Part shown: positions 2,992 to 33,214 of the stretch, one piece after another
Layout: each line of letters begins with the position of its first letter
How positions within the stretch are numbered: the stretch's first letter is position 1
Source of the DNA: Candidatus Hydrogenedentota bacterium
GTDB lineage: Bacteria > Hydrogenedentota > Hydrogenedentia > Hydrogenedentales > GCA-2746185
DNA: 33,309 nucleotides
Direction of reading: 5' to 3'
NCBI GenBank assembly: GCA_046583315.1
Contig: JAYGCN010000093.1
Span: 1 to 33,309, forward strand
Translations under genes and position numbers: made by a program
The notes under the pieces: model-generated
Databases searched by the model: none
What the model saw: only the letters and a program-made list of their open reading frames with translations
Told to the model about the DNA's origin: nothing

Positions 2992-3918
2992 ATGCGTAGC
3001 ATATATCGGTTCTTCTTTTGGTTCTTTTCTTCTTTCCCAAGAAGAAAAGAATGGTTTTTAGCGGTCTCGGCCGTAATCTTTTTCACTTCTTCGGTAAACG
3101 CCGAAGAAGTGAAAAAGCCGAACTTTCATCATGTTCATTTGAATGTGGTGGATCCGGCGGCGACGATTTCTTATTACCGGAAGTTTCATGGGGCCACTCC
3201 TGTACGGTATGCGAATACGGTCGATGCGTTGTTTACGGAGCGGTCGTTTATTTTGATGAACAAGGTGGATATGCCTGCACCGAGTGCTCAGAAGACCGGG
3301 TTGTGGCATATCGGTTGGGGCGGACGGGATGTGCCGAGCGAGTATGAGTGGTTCAAGAAGAATGGCGCGGACATCAACACGCATTTGTATGCGCTGAACA
3401 ATATTCATGTGACCTATCTGAATGGGCCGGACAAGGAAATGATTGAGGTCAACACGATGGGGCACAACCGGTTTGGGCATGTGCATTTGTTGGCGGCGGA
3501 TGTGAACGTGACGACGGGTTGGTATGCGAAACATTTTGGACTGGCGCCGCGTAATCCGAATGTTCCGAAACCGGAGGACATGACGAAGGTGCGAGCGTGG
3601 TCGAGCGGATTTCGCTGCGATAACGTGTCGTTCGTGGTGTATGGACTACCCGATTACACGCCGAGGCCGCCGTGGTGGAAGGATGGACCGCTGACGGAGC
3701 AGGTATCGACCAAGGGCCGGGTGATTGACCATATCGCGTTTTCGTATCGGGATATAGAGCCGGAGTTTGAGAGGCTGAAGAAGGAAGGCGTGACGATTGT
3801 GGGGCAGATCCGGTTTGATGAGGAATTCAATCATTCGAGTTTTTTTGTGGAGGGGCCGGATAAGGTGTTGATTGAGGTGGTGGAGGCTAAGCGTGTGCCG
3901 GAGGGGATTTGGGAGTAA
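2992..3918 (+). CDS. Exported VOC (glyoxalase/extradiol dioxygenase fold) protein with repeated VOC modules
   Basis: FHHVHLN, LWHIGW, GPDKEMIEV, FGHVHL, IDHIAF, GPDKVLIEV. Signal peptide ends ...SSVNA. RBS GGAGAGG upstream. Confidence 0.85.
   Translation: MRSIYRFFFWFFSSFPRRKEWFLAVSAVIFFTSSVNAEEVKKPNFHHVHLNVVDPAATISYYRKFHGATPVRYANTVDALFTERSFILMNKVDMPAPSAQKTGLWHIGWGGRDVPSEYEWFKKNGADINTHLYALNNIHVTYLNGPDKEMIEVNTMGHNRFGHVHLLAADVNVTTGWYAKHFGLAPRNPNVPKPEDMTKVRAWSSGFRCDNVSFVVYGLPDYTPRPPWWKDGPLTEQVSTKGRVIDHIAFSYRDIEPEFERLKKEGVTIVGQIRFDEEFNHSSFFVEGPDKVLIEVVEAKRVPEGIWE
3013..3051. repeat. REP-like palindrome inside the VOC gene signal-peptide coding region
   Basis: Tail TTCTTTTGG, then a perfect 13-bp stem (3022-3034 with 3039-3051) and loop TCCC. 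Confidence 0.65.
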
Positions 3919-3983
3919 GGGCTTTGTCCACAGATGAATAGTTTTTGTGGAATGGTGTTTGGTCAAACGGAAAGAAAAATATT

Positions 3984-4655
3984 ATGAAATGGTCAAAGAG
4001 TGTGAGTTTATTATTGAGTGTGATCGTAACCACTGGCCCATTTGCTGACGATAAAAATTTTTCGTTGACGACGACGGATGGGCTGGTTGCGAATCGTGTG
4101 TTGGCCGTGGCTAAGACTTTTGATGGGCGCGATGGTGTTCATGTTCGTGAGGATCCGGATGCGAAGGGGGCTGGTGCGGACAGACTTGTGTTGCTTTCGG
4201 GTACGGATTTCACGGACGGGGTGATTGAGGTTGATATGGCGGGTGAGCCTGCCAAGGATGCGGGCAGGAATGCGCGGGGTTTCATCGGAATTGCGTTTCG
4301 GGTGTCGTCTGATGCTTCGAAATTTGAGTGTATTTATCTTCGCCCGACGAATGGTCGCGTAGACGATCCGGTGCGAAAGAGTCATGCGGTGCAGTATGAG
4401 TCGATACCGGATTTTCCGTGGCATAAGCTGTGTCGTGCAACGCCGGACAAGTATGAGAGTGACGCTGATATTGGTCTGGGCGAATGGACGAAGGTGAAGA
4501 TTGAAGTGAAGGGTACCAAGGCGAGCTTGTATATTAATGGTGCCGAGGAGGCGAGTCTTGTGGTGAATGATTTGAAATTGGGTGAGGCTTCGGGGGCGCT
4601 TTGGATTGGCCCGGGAACGGATGCGTATTTTTCGAATCTGACGATTCGGGATTAG
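3984..4655 (+). CDS. Exported beta-rich protein, probably concanavalin/LamG-like (DUF1080-like)
   Basis: N-terminal signal MKWSKSVSLLLSVIV. Motifs DFTDGVIEVD, GFIGIAFR, YLRPTNGR, EWTKVKIEVKG...LYING, AYFSNL. The in-frame ATG at 3984 is preferred over the GTG at 3945. Confidence 0.6.
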   Translation: MKWSKSVSLLLSVIVTTGPFADDKNFSLTTTDGLVANRVLAVAKTFDGRDGVHVREDPDAKGAGADRLVLLSGTDFTDGVIEVDMAGEPAKDAGRNARGFIGIAFRVSSDASKFECIYLRPTNGRVDDPVRKSHAVQYESIPDFPWHKLCRATPDKYESDADIGLGEWTKVKIEVKGTKASLYINGAEEASLVVNDLKLGEASGALWIGPGTDAYFSNLTIRD

Positions 4656-24864: not shown

Positions 24865-25323
24865 ATGCCAACATTTAGTCCGTCAAGCGGTACGCCGCGC
24901 AAAATGAGTCCGTCTCTGGAGCAATACGTTGAGGCGATCGCTGACCTGTTGACGCGGGATAAAGTCTGTAGTGTAAGTGATATTGCTGCGCAGGTGCAGG
25001 TGAGTCGTCCCGCCGTTTCGCGGGCCGTTCGCGAGTTATCCGAACAAAATCTGGTTACGCACAAAGCGTATGGGTACGTCGATCTGACGGAGCAGGGTCA
25101 GAAGATAGCCGATATGCTCACGATTCGTCACGAGGCGATATATGCATTCATGAAAGACGTATTGCAGTACGACGAAGATTTCGCCGATCAGGAAGCGTGT
25201 CGACTGGAGCATCAGGTGGACGACGAATTCGTGGCGCGCCTGGAGACCTTGGGTCGTGTGGTCGCGGAGCATCCAGAAGTAGTCGAGGCTCTTCGCGATC
25301 AGCTCAGCGAGCCTAACAACTAG
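24865..25323 (+). CDS. DtxR/MntR-family metal-dependent transcriptional regulator
   Basis: SPSLEQYVEAI, wHTH VSDIAAQVQVSRPAVSRAV, LTEQG, RHEAI, EACRLEH. Short form with no SH3/FeoA domain. RBS AAGGAG. Confidence 0.92.
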   Translation: MPTFSPSSGTPRKMSPSLEQYVEAIADLLTRDKVCSVSDIAAQVQVSRPAVSRAVRELSEQNLVTHKAYGYVDLTEQGQKIADMLTIRHEAIYAFMKDVLQYDEDFADQEACRLEHQVDDEFVARLETLGRVVAEHPEVVEALRDQLSEPNN

Positions 25324-26147
25324 GCTTCCACCAAGTGCCCCTGTAACACGGATTCCTTACGTCGTGCGTGTAAGGTGCGGAGCGATTTGGCAAAGCCTTC
25401 TGGTTTTATGCCGAAGGGATAGGGGTCGGCGTATTGCTCGTCAAAGCGGTCTGCAATTTCCAGGCATAAGGGCAGGAAGCGATCCATTTCGTCTTCGAAT
25501 ACTGTTTGCGTCTGAGGATGATCACGGATGATGCGCTGGGCAAGATAGGTGCCGAAAGCGATATGGCGTGACTCATCTTTTTGAATATTGCGCACGCCTT
25601 CGCGCAGTCCGGGCAGAATGCCATTGGGGTCCATCGCCCTGTAAAAAATATCGTATCCGAATTCTGCGAGCACCCCTTCGACAATCTGATGATAGACGAC
25701 GACGGCACGCATCTGGGCCTCGGGGGAATGGTCGGTGTAGAGTGCGGTCATGGCCTCCGGTAGATGGGTGTTAAGGACGGGTGAAGGTGTGCCGGAGGGG
25801 TAGGGGACATCGACGCCCAGTTTGCCGGGCAAGGTCTCATCGAGCCAGCGCTGGAAGAACTCCACATGCGTGGACTCTTCGTAGAGTTGCTGGGTGATGT
25901 ACATCTCTTCATCCATGTGTCCGCGTTCAGTGCGCAGGGCGGTCTGCAAGGGCGCAAGATCGTGCGCCACGGCACGTTCCCCTACGAGGAATCCAAATAC
26001 CTGGCCCAGGATAAGATCCCGCTCCACGTCCGACATCGCGCTCCAGTCTTTGGCGTCTTGCGTCATGTCGATGGTGTGGGGATTCCACTGCAGCTCGCGG
26101 CCGCGTCGTAGTTCTTTGAGTGGGAATGCGTCGAAGTTGAGTGCCAT
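25320..26147 (-). CDS. R2-like ligand-binding oxidase (R2lox, Mn/Fe ferritin-like)
   Basis: WNPHTIDMTQDAKDW, GERAVAHDL, EESTHVEFF, YHQIVEGVLA, LPGLREG, DESRHIAFG. Confidence 0.9.
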   Translation of the reverse strand: MALNFDAFPLKELRRGRELQWNPHTIDMTQDAKDWSAMSDVERDLILGQVFGFLVGERAVAHDLAPLQTALRTERGHMDEEMYITQQLYEESTHVEFFQRWLDETLPGKLGVDVPYPSGTPSPVLNTHLPEAMTALYTDHSPEAQMRAVVVYHQIVEGVLAEFGYDIFYRAMDPNGILPGLREGVRNIQKDESRHIAFGTYLAQRIIRDHPQTQTVFEDEMDRFLPLCLEIADRFDEQYADPYPFGIKPEGFAKSLRTLHARRKESVLQGHLVEA

Positions 26148-26172: not shown

Positions 26173-27510
26173 TTAATCGTCGATGGATTGGTAAACCATG
26201 TTTTTGAATACTTCTCCGAAGGGAAGTTGGGGGGGCAGGTTTTGCATCATGTAAATGCCGATAAGTTCTTCTTTCGGGTCAATCCAAAATGCCGTGCCCG
26301 CAGCGCCGCCCCAGCTGTAGGAGCCTTCGGAGACTTGCGAAGCGGAGAGGCCCTGATCGAGTACCACGGCAAATCCGAGGCCAAATGTGCTGCCGCCTGC
26401 CCGCATTCCGATGCTCGCATCCTGGCAGTGGTCTTTGGTCATTAGTTCAATGGTGGGTCGGCTGATGATGCGCGCACCATCCAGTTTGCCGCCATTGAGG
26501 AGCATCTGACAGAAGCGTGCATAGTCCGGGGTCGTTGAGACAAGACCGCCGCCACCGGAGAAGAAGGTTGGTTGATTCACAAAGTTCCGGGAGATAAAGG
26601 ATAGGGCGGGTTCGATGCCTTCTCCGCTTTGAGCTGGGGAATAGAGCTGTGCGAGACGGTCGAGTTGATCCTTGGGGACGTAGAAGCCTGTGTCGTGCAT
26701 GGCCAGCGGTGCGAAGATTCGATCTTGAAGAAAGACGTCGAAGGATTGGCCGGAGAGAACCTCGACCAGGCGTCCCATTACGTCTACGGAAATGCTGTAG
26801 TGCCAGCGTTCACCTGGCTGAAAGAGAAGGGGAGCCGTGCTGACTTTTTCGACCATTTGTTTGAGATCTTTGTCGAGCATCAGAATGCCCATCTTCTGAT
26901 ACATCTTGTCAACGTCGGTATTGCCGAACAAGCCGTAGGTCAGGCCTGCCGTGTGGCGCATCAAATCGCGTATTGTCATATCCCGTTTCGCAGGCACGGT
27001 TGCGATATCAGTTTCGATTTTCGAGGGAGCCGCGGTGCCGGTAGGGTCTTCATCCGGGATATTGAATGATGGACCAGTCTCGTCTGTAGTGTCGACGACG
27101 ACTTGTAGGCCGCCGAGTTCAGGAATGTATTTGGATACGGGATCGTCGAGGAAGAATTTTCCTTCTTCAAAAAGCATCATCAGCGCGACACTGGTAATGG
27201 GTTTGGACATGGAGTAAATTCGGTAAATGGTGTCGTTTGATGTGGGGATCTGTTTCTCACGATCCGAGAAGCCGAAATTTTCGTAGTAACCGATTTGCCC
27301 TTTACGGATAATCATGGCTGCGGCGCCGGTGATATGTCCGTCGTCTATGTCTTTTTGAATGATGGCGGAAATGCGATCAAGTCGTTCCTGGGAGAGGCCG
27401 ACTTTGGAGGGGGATACCTCGGGTAGAACGGAACTGGCAGAAGTGAGCGGGGTGATGGCGCAGAGGGCAATGGCGATGGCCCATGCGACGCGGTGGGTAG
27501 CTCTAAACAT
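26173..27510 (-). CDS. Exported serine hydrolase, class C beta-lactamase/EstB-like family
   Basis: Signal peptide, SxxK in YSMSKPIT, TIRDLMRHTAGLTY, LLFQPGERWHYS, GGGGLVST, WGGAAGT. Confidence 0.93.
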   Translation of the reverse strand: MFRATHRVAWAIAIALCAITPLTSASSVLPEVSPSKVGLSQERLDRISAIIQKDIDDGHITGAAAMIIRKGQIGYYENFGFSDREKQIPTSNDTIYRIYSMSKPITSVALMMLFEEGKFFLDDPVSKYIPELGGLQVVVDTTDETGPSFNIPDEDPTGTAAPSKIETDIATVPAKRDMTIRDLMRHTAGLTYGLFGNTDVDKMYQKMGILMLDKDLKQMVEKVSTAPLLFQPGERWHYSISVDVMGRLVEVLSGQSFDVFLQDRIFAPLAMHDTGFYVPKDQLDRLAQLYSPAQSGEGIEPALSFISRNFVNQPTFFSGGGGLVSTTPDYARFCQMLLNGGKLDGARIISRPTIELMTKDHCQDASIGMRAGGSTFGLGFAVVLDQGLSASQVSEGSYSWGGAAGTAFWIDPKEELIGIYMMQNLPPQLPFGEVFKNMVYQSIDD

Positions 27511-27604: not shown

Positions 27605-30118
27605 TTAGTGGGATATTTTGTCGAGTTTCTTGCGTACCGCACGCGTTTTCGGGTGATCCTTGCCCAGACTACCCTCATAGATGTCCAAAGCCAGCGTAAG
27701 ATGCCCCATGGCGACAATCGTGTCCCCCTGGTGCGCCAAGACCGAGCCTACACCCGCCGCATCACGGCCCACGTGGGGGTGTTCCTTCCCGAGATGGCGC
27801 GTATCCATATTCATCGCTTGTTCGTAGAAGTTGATCGCACTCTCGTATTCTCTTTCGATCTCGCATGAGCGCCCGAGTCGGTACAGGATTGTGGCGTGAT
27901 CGGAGTAGTTATCCGCGGATTGGGCCTCAATAATGCTTAGTGCCCGATTGTATAGATCTTTGGCCTGCGACGGTGCCTCCAATCCATCCATGGCTTTTCC
28001 AAGATTCACCAGAATTGAAACAAGTTCGACAGCGTCTTCGCCGTTCAATTCTGTCTGCATGGCAAGTGCCTGCTCAAGAAATATGCGCGCCTGGCCGTGC
28101 TGCTGCTGTCCGAGCATGACTATCCCGAGATTGGTAAGAAGCTTGGCCATTTCGTAGTCCTGTTCCGTCGATTCGTCACGCTCCAACAACGTGAGGGCTT
28201 CTCGATACGAGGTCTCGGCATCCGAAAGGCGTCCGACCTCTCGATAGGCGTGTCCCAAATAAAGGAGATCCATTCGCACGCGTGGGTCCTCGTTGCCCGT
28301 CATGTTCTGACCCAGACGCAGGGCTCGTTCAAGATGTTCGACGGCACCTTCCGCATCGTTGTTGTGAAGGAGCAACACGCCCAGACTGTTCAGGTATATC
28401 GCGAGTACTTCATTGTCGCATACATGGGCATTTTCCTCGGCACGAACCGCTTTGAGAAAACAATTCTGCGCCTTTGGGTAGTTCTCCAGTTTCATCCAGG
28501 TATTGCCGAAACAATGTGCGCATTCCGCCACGACGGAGTGATTCCAGCCGTAGACTTCCACGAAGGTCTTCATGGCTTTTTCGAAAGCGCGCTGGGCTCG
28601 CTTGACCTCGCCTTTCTCCTCAAGAATCATGCAAAGATTGCGTAGCGGCATGGTCAGCATCGAATCGTGGATGTTGCTGTATCGCGCCTCCTTCGCCGTG
28701 CCATACAGGGATTCGCATATCTCGATGGCACGTTCGAAACAGGCCTGGGCGCCATTGAGATTTCCTAGCTGGTGTTCCACGATTCCAAGACTATTGACGC
28801 GCGTGGCGACGGCAGGATGCACTGTGCCCAGTTTTCTTTCGGCGATATTAATTGAACGCAAGTAGCACATTTGAGTCTGTTTTTGGAGGTCACAGGCGTG
28901 AAGATACAGCCCTGCCTGATAAAGTAGCGTCGATGCCAGTGGAAGGGCCGCGTTGCAATCTTCCGCCATCTCAACGGCGCCTAGCAGATGCGGGATCAAC
29001 TGCGTGCTGACTGTCGAAGGAGAGTCGAAGGTCGCATCGGTGGGGAAAGCCTGTTCAAGCAGTTTCATTACCGCATTGATCCAATTCTTGGCCGGTTTCT
29101 CATCCATTCCTGCGCGCAATACTCTCTGAAACGACGGATGAATGGTAAACAGGTCTTGGTGTTGCGACAGTATGCCGAAATCACATAGGAGTGTCGCCAT
29201 GTCCAGGAAGGCCTTATCATCATTGAGAATGCGCGCCAGACGTGTTGTTACGATGCCCTCTCCATCTCGAAAAAGAAAGCGCGGGATGTCGTTGGGTGCC
29301 AGGAAACAACATAGCGCAAGAAAATCTTTGGCAGCGGGAATCTGGGAAGCAATTACACTGAGTGGGTAACGAATCACCATCTGAAGCGCATCGTCGTAGC
29401 CGGGCGCGTCCAATTGGTCGAGTGCCTGCCCTATGGTACTCAGCATTTGCGGCATTGTGTAATCGGAATGTAGTGCCGTCGCCGCCAGCATGTCGAGGGC
29501 ATAGGGACTATGTGGGAGAAGTGCCGGAACCTGTTCCGCGCGCACGTCGAAGGCTTCATAGCGATCAATGAAACTAGCGAGATCGAGTGGCTCGATGATC
29601 ACTTTGGAGACGTCCGTTTCCGGTGAGGGATGATGCGTCGTTATCAGAACATGTCCCATGACCGGGTCAGGAAGAAAACTGTCGATAATCGCCGGATCGG
29701 CCAAATCGTCAAATACGAGTAACCACCCTTCGTGCAGGGCAAGCCATTGCTTGACCTCATCAACGGTGTGGAATGGGTTATCTTCGTGCGCATCGCCCAT
29801 TTCGGCAGATACGGCGAGTTGCGTAAATTTCAGTGCCAAAGCGGCTTCATGCCCTCCTTCCAGCCACCAGATCGCCTGGTAGTTATCCGCCTGCCGATAG
29901 GCAAACTCTCTGGCCATCGAAGTCACGCCGGGGTTGCCATCAAGAGCCTCCGATGCCTCAAGAATGCAGATCGGCGCGGATTCGAGACGTTCATGAATCG
30001 TTTCAAGTACGCCGTGTGCGTCTGCGAATTGGCTGATCCGTGGGAACGTTATGTTCCAGATTGGCGGGAACCCCTTGCCCTGTGTTTGATTGACATTCAT
30101 CTCGAATATAATACTCAC
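27605..30118 (-). CDS. NB-ARC-like domain protein with C-terminal TPR repeats and a degenerate P-loop
   Basis: PIWNI, REFAYR, IWW, WLLVFDD, GHVLITT, LCCFLAPNDIP, then many TPR-like repeats (HPAVATRVNSLG, HPHVGRD, GKDHPKT). The start may be ATG 30100. Confidence 0.85.
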   Translation of the reverse strand: MSIIFEMNVNQTQGKGFPPIWNITFPRISQFADAHGVLETIHERLESAPICILEASEALDGNPGVTSMAREFAYRQADNYQAIWWLEGGHEAALALKFTQLAVSAEMGDAHEDNPFHTVDEVKQWLALHEGWLLVFDDLADPAIIDSFLPDPVMGHVLITTHHPSPETDVSKVIIEPLDLASFIDRYEAFDVRAEQVPALLPHSPYALDMLAATALHSDYTMPQMLSTIGQALDQLDAPGYDDALQMVIRYPLSVIASQIPAAKDFLALCCFLAPNDIPRFLFRDGEGIVTTRLARILNDDKAFLDMATLLCDFGILSQHQDLFTIHPSFQRVLRAGMDEKPAKNWINAVMKLLEQAFPTDATFDSPSTVSTQLIPHLLGAVEMAEDCNAALPLASTLLYQAGLYLHACDLQKQTQMCYLRSINIAERKLGTVHPAVATRVNSLGIVEHQLGNLNGAQACFERAIEICESLYGTAKEARYSNIHDSMLTMPLRNLCMILEEKGEVKRAQRAFEKAMKTFVEVYGWNHSVVAECAHCFGNTWMKLENYPKAQNCFLKAVRAEENAHVCDNEVLAIYLNSLGVLLLHNNDAEGAVEHLERALRLGQNMTGNEDPRVRMDLLYLGHAYREVGRLSDAETSYREALTLLERDESTEQDYEMAKLLTNLGIVMLGQQQHGQARIFLEQALAMQTELNGEDAVELVSILVNLGKAMDGLEAPSQAKDLYNRALSIIEAQSADNYSDHATILYRLGRSCEIEREYESAINFYEQAMNMDTRHLGKEHPHVGRDAAGVGSVLAHQGDTIVAMGHLTLALDIYEGSLGKDHPKTRAVRKKLDKISH

Positions 30119-30278: not shown

Positions 30279-31346
30279 ATGAAATGTCCATATCACATAA
30301 CGAAGGATGTCGCTGGGTATTGCTCGGTATGCGGCGCCTTTGTGTGTGATATATGCCTTGGAACGCATGAGGGCGCATCATTCTGCCCAAAGCACTTCAA
30401 GGCTATCGCATCGAAATTGGGACAGTCCGAGCAGGCGGCCATGGGACGCAGGCGTCAGTCCAGGCATCGTCTGATTGTTCAGAAATTGAACGGAAGCAAA
30501 CTTCAGGGGGCCTGCCGAAGCATGAACTTGCGCGATGCCGGCTTCTATCTTGAATGCGAAGACAATAACGGGGTATCCACGGACGAGTCTGTTCGCGTTC
30601 AGTTCGTGGATGTTAAGTATGTTGCACATGTCAAAAGTTATGACGGCAAGTTCGATAAGAGCGAAGAATACCAGCAATACAATGCTGGTGGTACCCACGT
30701 CGTCGTAAGTTTCAAGGATGGCGAGATACAGGAAGGCGTTACCATGCATGCCTACGTTCCTGGTCACACTCGATTCTATTTGATACCGATGGACCCGAAC
30801 TCGAACTTCATTAATATTTTGGTCGAGGCGAGTGCTCTGGAGAGGGTGTATACGCCGGAGGAATATCGCGCGTTGATGGTTCAGGAGAAAGAACTACGCA
30901 AGCAGCGCAAGGCGGATCTTTCATCATCGAGCCAGTCGGTTGATTTGGATAGCAACAATTCCAACGGCGCACTTCTGGATACGACTTCGGAGGAAGACAA
31001 CTCAACATTGAGTCAGGAAGAATCAATGGGGGATTTCTATTTCGAGACGCACAATTATCCTAGAGCGCTTGCAGAGTATGAAGTGGCTCGAAAAATACAT
31101 CTGAATTCACCGCGATTGCAGCGCAAGTGTGTCGTGACCACGGTCAACATTGGAATTCAATACATCAAATCCCGTGAATATCCAAACGCACTGGAATTTA
31201 TGGAAGCGGCATTGAAGATCGACCCCAAGAATCCGCACGCCAAGAAAAAAGCCAAACAACTCAAGAAAATTATCCAAAAGACCGAACGCCGGATGCGCGA
31301 ATACTATGAGCAACAGGCCAAAGGGCCTGACGATCATGCGTTATAG
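30279..31346 (+). CDS. Hypothetical protein with a B-box-like Zn finger, two related beta modules and a C-terminal TPR
   Basis: CPYH...CSVCGAFVCDIC...FCPKH; LIVQKLNGSKLQG...GFYL resembles VVVSFKDGEIQEG...RFYL; TPR-like ALEFMEAALKIDPKN. Confidence 0.75.
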   Translation: MKCPYHITKDVAGYCSVCGAFVCDICLGTHEGASFCPKHFKAIASKLGQSEQAAMGRRRQSRHRLIVQKLNGSKLQGACRSMNLRDAGFYLECEDNNGVSTDESVRVQFVDVKYVAHVKSYDGKFDKSEEYQQYNAGGTHVVVSFKDGEIQEGVTMHAYVPGHTRFYLIPMDPNSNFINILVEASALERVYTPEEYRALMVQEKELRKQRKADLSSSSQSVDLDSNNSNGALLDTTSEEDNSTLSQEESMGDFYFETHNYPRALAEYEVARKIHLNSPRLQRKCVVTTVNIGIQYIKSREYPNALEFMEAALKIDPKNPHAKKKAKQLKKIIQKTERRMREYYEQQAKGPDDHAL

Positions 31347-31955
31347 CTCACCAAAGCCTTTTGGGTCACCCACGGTCACATAGGAGTCATCCGGGAGCGG
31401 GGGATGCTTGGCGGGCATTTCTCCCGTGATTTCGCTGGCCGCAATCGTGATGGCCTGACCGTCCACCATGTTGCACGAGCTGGCATTGCAGATTTGAGCG
31501 AACAATTTTACGGTCGCGTCTCCGGTCCCTGTTTTTTCCACTGGAACGGCAAAGTACGTCGTGTTCTCGAAACCCCAGGTGTACCATTTGATTTCCGTCA
31601 TGCTGAGATCTTTCGGGGTGGATTGAATCCACCTGCCTGTCACTTTCAAACCGCCTGAAACTTCGATGCGCGTGGGTAATTCGGTATCCGGCTTCTCTTT
31701 GCCTGTTTTTTTCTGGGCGCGCTGGAGGTTATCCATCGAGTAGGTATGCCAACCTTTGCCATGGGCGGCTTCGACAACGAGGTAACCTGAGTCGACTTTG
31801 GCGCGATAGGAAATGACGGTGCCTTGTCGACGCCGCATGATGGTAAGCGGCTCAGACCAGTCCGCCGCGAAGGCTGGGCCGACATCAAGCAGCACAGTGG
31901 CGATCAACACCGCCGAGAGGATGAAGTATTTTGCAATGCTGCGCGTGTGAATCAT
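31341..31955 (-). CDS. Exported DsbD N-terminal-like domain protein
   Basis: Signal peptide ending AFA, GWHTYS, PTRI, QICNASSC. Its start overlaps the upstream gene's stop by 4 bp. Confidence 0.7.
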   Translation of the reverse strand: MIHTRSIAKYFILSAVLIATVLLDVGPAFAADWSEPLTIMRRRQGTVISYRAKVDSGYLVVEAAHGKGWHTYSMDNLQRAQKKTGKEKPDTELPTRIEVSGGLKVTGRWIQSTPKDLSMTEIKWYTWGFENTTYFAVPVEKTGTGDATVKLFAQICNASSCNMVDGQAITIAASEITGEMPAKHPPLPDDSYVTVGDPKGFGEL

Positions 31956-33214
31956 CGTTCCGCCTTTCTAAAATTCTGCATGTGACTATACGCTTTCATT
32001 TCGATTTGTTCGCCGTCGCGCAAGACCTCGAATATCATTTTCTCATCAGCACTTTTGCGCAACTGAATATAACGTTCGACGTATAGGGTATCAGGATCGC
32101 TCATGGCACCGTCCACCGAGATGACAATATCGCCTTCTTTCAGCTGATGCAAATTATAGACCTGTGCCGCTGGGTCCACCTCCACGATGCGGCTGGCAAA
32201 GCCGTATTCCGGTAGTTGACGTGCCACCTTCTCTTCTTTGGATAACGGCTCCGACCAGAAAAAAACCACGGGTTCGACGGTCCAATAGCGGAAATAGAGG
32301 TCGGTGAACCACCACTCCGACGGCAGTGTCACATCCAGCGTATGAGGCTCGCCCTTGCGGGAGACATTCAGGGTAATGGCCTTCGCCTGTCGATCAACTT
32401 GGTCGTAATAATACTGAAGATCGCCGAAGGTGTATACGGACGTGCCGTTGATGGCCGTGATTTCGTCTCCCGGGCGCATCCCGGCTTTTGCCACCGTTCC
32501 GCCCGCGCGTTCCACGACGAGACCTTTGGGTACATCCAGATGAATGCCTATCGTTCGAATGTCTGGTGAGCGGAATAAATCCCGGATCGCATCGAGCGTG
32601 CCGTCCTCTTTCTTGCGTTGCGCATCGTAATCGCCGATGAGATGGCATTCCACGCAGCGTCCACGCTCGGTTACTTCTTCGAAGAGCACCCGATTGTCGC
32701 GCGGCAACACTTTCTTGGGAAGCGGTTTTTCGGGTAGCAAGCCCTTCTTGTATTGGTCGTGCAACTCGAGACCCTGACCGAGTGCTTTCTCAAGACTTTC
32801 AAGATTTAGATAGGACTCGGGAGAGACCTCATCGCGACCACCATATCGCAGGTAGATTTGCTCGTCCGCATTCACGATGAAGTAGTAGACCGCATTGTGG
32901 CGATCATAGTCGTATAAGCCGATATTGATGCCGTCCATCTCGGTGATACGCACGGGCACGTACTGTTCGATTAACTGGCCCATGGATGAAGTTTTCGGAG
33001 TCTGCACAACCTGTGCATCAAAAAGGCGACAAGCCATTCACGGAACGCATCGAAAGTTGAGCAGCATCGGTTTTCCGGATATTTTCGCTTGGCGAAGTCC
33101 TTCGTCGTAGCTGTTAATCCAATTGAAGTACAGGGTGTCGTCTGAGGCGTGAGCGTTGAGAATCGATCCGAATGCGATGCAGGCAGTAATTATCGTTTTC
33201 ATATAATGTTTCAT
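31952..33214 (-). CDS. Exported thioredoxin-fold / CxxCH / PDZ (seleno)protein with an in-frame UGA at 33040-33038 read as Sec; 420 aa from ATG 33214
   Basis: Upstream of the ORF-track start the same frame encodes MKHYMKTIITACIAFGSILNAHASDDTLYFNWINSYDEGLRQAKISGKPMLLNFRCVP-UGA-MACRLFD, which is a signal peptide plus a Thioredoxin_7-type start. The protein continues with RYGGRD, CVECH and PDZ-like AGMRPGDEITAING. Alternative ATG at 33202. Confidence 0.85.
33003..33017 (-). promoter_or_regulatory. Putative bacterial SECIS hairpin
   Basis: mRNA UGCACA-GGU-UGUGCA forms a perfect 6-bp stem starting 20 nt after the UGA, with a G-led apical loop. Confidence 0.65.

Follow-up and report, generated by a model that had tools for sequence, protein, structure and literature searches.

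The window analysed here, a stretch of DNA 33,309 nucleotides long, carries on its reverse strand a gene for a 420-residue Trx7/PDZ selenoprotein (31952..33214), defined by its reading frame and by a match to the profile of a curated family. From an ATG at 33214 the frame runs open for 58 codons up to an in-frame TGA (33040-33038), resumes at an ATG at 33037 just past this TGA, and ends at a terminal TGA (31954-31952); the 420 residues follow once the internal TGA is read as selenocysteine (Sec), and an alternative start at ATG 33202 would give 416 residues. An ordinary list of open reading frames contains the 361-residue piece (31952-33037) alone. It is in this truncated form that the protein from this contig is stored in a public protein collection, and 106 of 120 database homologs are truncated in the same way. 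The coordinates given in the initial annotation--those of the frame, of the TGA, of the 361-residue open frame and of a hairpin downstream of the TGA--all hold on the sequence. The gene occurs in a single copy in the genome. (A weak PDZ match containing one TGA, at C171:46553-46783, is probably the end of a gene.) The contig stops 95 bp upstream of the gene, and a scan for promoters and terminators near it gave counts equal to those in shuffled sequences (3 versus 2.0; 2 versus 2.2).

The stop codon of this gene overlaps, within the sequence ATGA, the start codon of a second reverse-strand gene (31341..31955), which encodes a probably exported 204-residue protein resembling DsbD's N-terminal domain (nDsbD) and is referred to below as the partner; the two genes are translationally coupled. 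Translation past the final TGA and on into the partner gene is ruled out, as the latter lies in a different frame. Converging on the partner gene is a forward-strand gene for a protein with B-box, DUF6982 and TPR regions (30279-31346), the ends of the two genes overlapping by 6 bases. Three further reverse-strand genes encode an 837-residue TPR protein (27605-30118), the N-terminal half of which resembles the TPR model of the FxSxx-COOH system (216 bits; cut-off 300); an exported serine hydrolase that Pfam places in its beta-lactamase family (26173-27510), which best matches an esterase-type model and falls far below all class C beta-lactamase cut-offs; and a homolog of R2-like ligand-binding oxidases (25320-26147), which scores just below the NCBIfam cut-offs.

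The family of Trx7/PDZ (seleno)proteins that the initial annotation had named is real, and the 420-residue protein belongs to it: NCBIfam model NF041199 (Trx7/PDZ domain-containing (seleno)protein) matches residues 31-407 with 390.2 bits (E 9.6e-117; cut-off 300) over profile positions 2-387 of 390. The protein is an additional member of an already curated family, not a new kind of protein. Its closest named homologs come from Ca. Hydrogenedentota (67%), and the close clade also spans Acidobacteriota, Planctomycetota, Verrucomicrobiota and KSB1 (as judged from the best 80 of 257 loci on genome contigs). The order of its domains, Thioredoxin_7 (PF13899) and then PDZ (PF13180, in two stretches), fits NF041199. 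Residues 1-23 (33146..33214), ending in A-H-A, read as a predicted signal peptide: hydrophobicity in an 11-residue window peaks (2.27) beginning at residue 8, nothing past residue 35 exceeds 1.25, and full-length homologs carry leaders that resemble it. This leader suggests that the protein is exported. A lipoprotein reading (I-T-A-C12) was rejected by eye, the cysteine coming too early for a lipobox. The thioredoxin fold that had been claimed to run across the TGA is recovered by Pfam Thioredoxin_7 (PF13899; residues 31-92, E 9e-9); together with matches in the PDB, this places a thioredoxin-fold domain at about residues 31-152 (32759..33124), of which the C-terminal boundary is an estimate. 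These PDB matches are weak (3f9u, E 0.005; 1uc7 and 2fwe, E 0.5-0.6) and ungapped at the active site, and the closest solved relatives of the domain appear to be the C-terminal domains of DsbD (cDsbD). Two PDZ domains follow, one at about residues 232-297 (32324..32521; Pfam PDZ_2, E 1.5e-12) and the other, with estimated bounds, at about residues 335-407 (31994..32212), defined by the second PDZ_2 (PF13180) stretch and by matches to DegP and DegQ. The DegP match covers residues 233-405, with two stretches aligning against DegP/DegQ chains, and involves the PDZ part alone; neither G-x-S-G nor [LIV]T-x-x-HV, the protease motifs looked for, occurs in the protein. On the evidence of these motifs and matches, the Trx7/PDZ selenoprotein is not a protease, and names of the 'serine protease Do' type given to its homologs are wrong.

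As far as sequence can show, this is a single gene in which UGA is recoded as Sec by way of a conserved SECIS element. The codon in question (33038..33040; U59) was compared across close loci pooled from three sources--10 loci from kin genomes, the best 80 of 257 from genome contigs and the best 80 of 324 from metagenomes--which, after 15 duplicates had been dropped, comprised 155 distinct loci. At this column TGA stands in 151 of the 155 and TGC or TGT in the other 4, and none has TAA or TAG; the codon 3' of the TGA is frequently not a start codon in relatives; and the 14 full-length proteins among the 120 database homologs all have Cys at this position. The machinery for Sec insertion is present in the genome, with all scores above the cut-offs: selA lies next to selB on contig C271, and selD and a tRNA-Sec with anticodon TCA are on contig C299. 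(The selD gene, at 325-2517 of locus L004 on C299, belongs to a fusion of 730 residues in which a pyridine nucleotide-disulfide oxidoreductase domain comes first, and its C-A-G-C-G-S-K motif has Cys, not Sec.) Among kin genomes, which are not independent of one another, selA is found in six of the seven with the TGA form, the exception being an 88%-complete genome in which neither selA nor selB was seen; one of the two kin genomes with the Cys form (97% complete, with TGT) lacks both selA and selB, and the other has them. Among distant loci (32 genomes), all 22 TGA loci are in selA-bearing genomes, and each of the 4 genomes without selA has the Cys form. Read support for the TGA was checked on assembled contigs from four runs: in one of these (from a separate study) a contig with a depth of 7.8 spans the site and differs in no letter, and in the other three the site is uncovered.

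The hairpin UGCACA-GGU-UGUGCA that the initial annotation had proposed is indeed found at 33017-33003 (feature 33003..33017, reverse strand); it begins 20 nt past the UGA and its loop lies 26 nt past it, so that its GGU loop, 6-bp stem and 26-nt spacing agree with what the available text of PMC13188914 lists for bacterial SECIS elements. The 56-nt SECIS region folds with -10.2 kcal/mol and the hairpin alone with -6.3, which is no better than shuffled sequences (z 0.02 to 1.40), and folding energy was consequently dropped as evidence. What speaks for this SECIS element is conservation, not stability. Its core, GC[AG]CAGGT.GTG, occurs in all 151 TGA loci (142 of them exact) and in none of the 4 Cys loci. 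Of the gene's 105 four-fold degenerate positions, the three most conserved (1.00, 0.99 and 0.95; median 0.55) all fall inside the hairpin, where they use GCA and GTT codons that the rest of the gene seldom uses. Across the 22 distant TGA loci the stem is altered on both sides, one pair changing from C-G to G-C, and four stem pairs are kept in 19 of the 22, as against none of the 9 distinct Cys sequences from distant loci. Genome-wide, a loose hairpin rule is satisfied after 3237 TGAs, which makes a scan for TGA plus hairpin too noisy to serve as a list of the selenoproteome; a stem of four pairs with a GGT loop, at the same offsets, follows just 53 of 160,649 genomic TGA triplets.

An alternative to recoding is that the TGA is a true stop or an assembly error, leaving either a broken gene or the 361-residue product made alone. 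Such a reading could appeal to the ATG immediately after the TGA, to the ordinary stability of the hairpin, to the short calls that prevail among database homologs and to the 88%-complete TGA-bearing relative with no visible selA or selB. It is hard to reconcile, however, with the sharing of TGA (and never TAA or TAG) at one Cys column, with the frequent lack of a start codon after the TGA, with the distribution of TGA and Cys forms over distant genomes with and without selA, with the TGT of the 97%-complete relative that has neither selA nor selB, and with the identical TGA on an independent contig. It is highly improbable and, as far as sequence can do so, already refuted. The Sec machinery, the pairing of Cys with TGA and the restriction of the SECIS element to TGA forms instead bear out the proposal that a single 420-residue exported selenoprotein is truncated by gene callers. 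The public 361-residue product lacks both signal peptide and active site, and the gene call needs correcting.

The Sec codon lies within the motif C56-V-P-U59-M-A-C62 (33029..33049), established from the read-through frame and from alignments of homologs; its first half, C56-V-P-U59, is a CxxU, as is the motif given for NF041199 in a table of PMC13188914. The TGA had been said to fall at a redox-Cys position, and in an ungapped alignment of the active sites (GKPMLLNFRCVPUMAC versus GKPVMLDLYADWCVAC) U59 does align with the attacking (first) Cys of the CVAC motif of cDsbD; by this alignment, therefore, U59 takes the place of the attacking Cys and C62 that of the usual resolving Cys, with C56 as an additional one. 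The overlapping CxxU and UxxC motifs that had also been pointed out are present in this protein but do not characterize the clade: of the 155 close loci, 144 have Gly at position 62, 8 have Cys and 3 have Ala, and the third Cys is kept (CxxUxxC) in 7 of the 151 Sec forms, the window's copy included. C56, by comparison, is conserved in 155 of 155. The distant set consisted of 33 Planctomycetota loci, one of which ends before the redox site; of the 32 scored, 12 have UxxU, 10 have CxxU and 10 have CxxC, and 26 retain C-x2-C/U-x2-C. The UxxU loci (L223, L229, L230, L232, L233, L235, L237, L241, L248, L249, L250 and L253) have a single hairpin, 25-26 nt past the second TGA, and the three UxxU proteins tested all score above the NF041199 cut-off. 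Because these 12 loci have TGA at the position of C56 as well, both redox positions tolerate Sec; and because C56 is either invariant or, in those same loci, Sec, while C62 is usually Gly, C56 and U59 are likely to form the redox pair. An alignment read by eye has no conserved Pro at the thioredoxin cis-Pro site.

Downstream of the thioredoxin-fold domain is a CxxCH motif (C187-V-E-C190-H191; 32642..32656), which, judging from its conservation, is a probable attachment site for heme c. All 155 close loci have it, as do all 146 aligned proteins, whose identity goes down to about 22%. No other motif is as strongly conserved across the family as a whole; in distant members it takes the form CxHCH (65 of 72 rows). 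A His 35 residues upstream of it, found in 135 of 145 rows, is a candidate sixth ligand. No cytochrome domain in Pfam matches the protein. The genome encodes two cytochrome c assembly proteins (PF01578), one of them 674 residues long, and has no match to CcmE (at 96.7% completeness), a combination that suggests maturation of the system II type; it also contains 36 open frames with at least two CxxCH motifs. The motif in the Trx7/PDZ protein probably carries one heme c. (At 194-2382 of locus L128, on contig C30, a 305-residue gene of the cytochrome c assembly family lies directly upstream of that for glutamyl-tRNA reductase.)

The coupled nDsbD-like gene, which is absent from the initial annotation, is the main clue to function. 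Its assignment draws on PF11412, on the ESM Atlas, on synteny and on gene fusions. The partner itself scores 22.7 bits against PF11412 (E 1e-4), below the 25-bit cut-off; 69 of 73 partner homologs match this profile with E <= 0.01; and the ESM Atlas puts the partner with DsbD_N clusters (features 0.92-0.93; predicted-structure TM 0.52-0.58). A search by sequence for solved relatives yielded none (the best, at E 0.36, being at the level of chance). The partner contains a Cys pair, C156-x4-C161, following Q154 (31473..31490); all three residues are invariant in 73 of 73 homologs, and the pair aligns with QACNDTTC of the N-domain of the genome's own DsbD (E 7e-4, 21 columns). Unlike full-length DsbD, neither the partner nor the Trx7/PDZ protein has a hydrophobic stretch past its leader.

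The partner adjoins the Trx7/PDZ gene in 106 of the 108 loci whose downstream sequence extends for 800 bases or more, in several phyla, and for one of the two exceptions it is found on another contig of the same genome. (In a relative, an unlinked partner at 3500-4102 of locus L135, on that genome's contig C1, lies between a kinase-like and a large methyltransferase-like gene, so named from their sequences.) Among 41 kin genomes the partner occurs in 9 of the 10 that bear the family, the contig of the tenth ending within the Trx7/PDZ gene, and in 0 of the 31 others. Moreover, 9 of 270 database proteins contain it as an in-frame fusion that keeps both Cys, and a tenth protein has a Cys-less remnant of it. 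Farther away, 0 of 33 distant loci have the partner within about 1.5 kb, and among 101 Planctomycetota genomes drawn it occurs in 2 of the 34 that bear the family, both times beside a copy of the window's clade. (A further match lies in a 685-residue frame of a genome without the family.) A quick tree of 64 rows, 31 of them hand-chosen close loci and 33 distant ones, places all partner-bearing loci, the window included, in a single CxECH clade (SH-aLRT 99). Because the partner maps to one clade, its presence in 106 of 108 loci reflects one gain that was kept rather than many events; and because it is absent from all 33 distant loci and present in 2 of 34 Planctomycetota, it cannot be a general mechanism of the family. 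The partner-bearing clade mostly lacks the third Cys, which distant loci keep in 26 of 32 cases; presence of the partner and loss of this Cys form a single clade-level coincidence, not a repeated pattern. Beyond clusters common to close Bryobacterales kin, no other conserved neighbours were found across the first 84 loci, where most large neighbour clusters are overlapping or opposite-strand frames. The literature searched yielded no description of the nDsbD-like partner or of the CxxCH.

The favoured reading of these features, to which a little less than an even chance is given, is that of a periplasmic selenol oxidoreductase that is recharged by a dedicated, free-standing nDsbD and acts on clients held by its PDZ domains. 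The C56/U59 pair would cycle in the periplasm between a selenenylsulfide and the selenol/thiol form, and C156/C161 of the partner would reduce it in the way that nDsbD reduces DsbC and CcmG. The partner is assumed to draw reductant in trans from the genome's full-length DsbD; the reduced selenol would then act on oxidised cysteines or disulfides of clients held by the tandem PDZ domains, and the heme c at CxxCH would serve as an auxiliary redox centre or sensor. In E. coli, as the available text of PMC3137068 has it, reductant passes from thioredoxin to tmDsbD, cDsbD and nDsbD and on to DsbC and CcmG, the known job of nDsbD being to hand reductant to thioredoxin-fold proteins of the periplasm. 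The present genome has a complete three-domain DsbD, its sole PF02683 match being on another contig. The recharging model draws on family membership and the Sec machinery, on the alignment of U59 with the first Cys of CVAC and the tolerance of Sec at both redox positions, and on a partner that is adjacent to, co-occurs with and in some proteins is fused to the Trx7/PDZ protein with both Cys intact; we infer from sequence the binding, the direction of electron flow and the substrate that it invokes. It leaves the invariant CxxCH with a side role only, and neighbouring genes point to no client or substrate and include no conserved third gene, all of which counts against it. In an observation apart from this locus, a DsbD_N-type gene with C-x5-C is followed directly, at 3003-4549 of locus L136 (contig C101) on the reverse strand, by a gene for an exported AhpC/TSA (Prx-like) protein, whose frame has a TGA within W-U-P-Y-C and, 20 nt downstream, a hairpin; this is one other plausible Sec site, picked by eye among the scan matches listed. 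From this pair and from AhpC/DsbD_N fusions in the ESM Atlas, the design of nDsbD plus selenoprotein seems to recur.

Part of the same evidence would suit a relay that resembles DsbD without its membrane portion, in which the Trx domain would correspond to DsbD gamma, the partner to DsbD alpha, and heme c would replace the transmembrane domain; as an electron source or sink, the heme would link periplasmic thiol chemistry to cytochromes or to a substrate bound at the heme, for instance peroxide or polysulfide. This is possible, if on the unlikely side. A polysulfide-reducing selenoenzyme with heme c does exist, as described in the accessible part of PMC13510729. The Trx domain is closest to cDsbD and the partner is nDsbD-like, the family conserves CxxCH above all other motifs, the upstream His could be a sixth ligand, and the genome has both cytochrome c assembly proteins and the 36 multi-CxxCH open frames. 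One heme, however, carries one electron and thiol exchange involves two, a mismatch that weighs against the relay, as do the lack of a conserved cytochrome or membrane partner near the first 84 loci and the fact that the wider family is mostly without the nDsbD-like protein. The corresponding picture of a soluble DsbD counterpart, in which electrons would pass between a Sec-Trx domain wired to heme c and an nDsbD-like shuttle dedicated to it, is doubtful; were it true, the pair would form a direct bridge from periplasmic thiol-disulfide chemistry to heme electron transfer, and such a bridge would span Acidobacteriota, Planctomycetota, Verrucomicrobiota and Hydrogenedentota. Rather unlikely is a redox or metal sensor-scaffold, whose Cys/Sec cluster and CxxCH would bind Zn or Fe or would switch PDZ binding, for example to an envelope-stress protease, with the partner resetting it. 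The retention of C-x2-C/U-x2-C in most distant loci, the CxHCH of distant rows and a PDZ pair like that of DegP/DegQ are in keeping with this idea, and so is the missing Pro, since absence of the cis-Pro favours metal binding. Yet the third Cys of such a cluster is replaced by Gly in nearly all close loci, and no conserved protease gene is nearby in the first 84 loci; moreover, Sec in place of Cys usually marks a catalytic redox site, according to the available portion of PMC2398784.

The Trx7/PDZ family has been catalogued since 2008 without a tested function. The nDsbD-like partner, the assignment of C56/U59 and the invariant CxxCH turn an 'unknown redox protein' into one that is bench-testable, and nature offers Cys-form pairs and fusions whose production needs no recoding. 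The NF041199 family is tabulated as CxxU with one Sec in PMC13188914 and appears as 'PDZ domain-containing protein' in PMC9312934; both papers cite PMC2398784, and we infer, from table position and motif, that the entry 'putative secreted serine protease MucD' (CxxU) there is the same family. The main text of BSepDB (PMC13326102) does not mention the family, and the available portions of PMC13188914, PMC9312934 and PMC2398784 make no mention of the CxxCH, of the nDsbD-like partner or of forms with two Sec.

Among known systems, DsbD of E. coli resembles the present pair in that its cDsbD is similar to the Trx domain at CVAC, in that the partner appears, from a profile match below the cut-off and a predicted structure, to share the fold of DsbD_N, and in the partner's Gln-x-Cys...Cys pair. 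The pair in the window differs from it in consisting of two separate exported proteins and no transmembrane domain, in having Sec at the attacking position with an extra Cys three residues before it, in adding CxxCH and two PDZ domains, and in the spacing of the partner's Cys, which is x4 (as in the genome's own DsbD) versus x5 for C103/C109 of E. coli. With the HtrA proteins DegP, DegQ and MucD the window protein shares export and tandem PDZ domains, but it has neither a trypsin domain nor a catalytic motif, and it scores 39 against a 416-bit cut-off. MccSep, the multiheme selenoenzyme of Geobacter, likewise unites Sec with heme c motifs within a single protein; as far as the accessible part of PMC13510729 describes it, however, MccSep has five hemes with a Cys-ligated active heme, whereas the window protein, with its thioredoxin fold and PDZ domains, has a single CxxCH.
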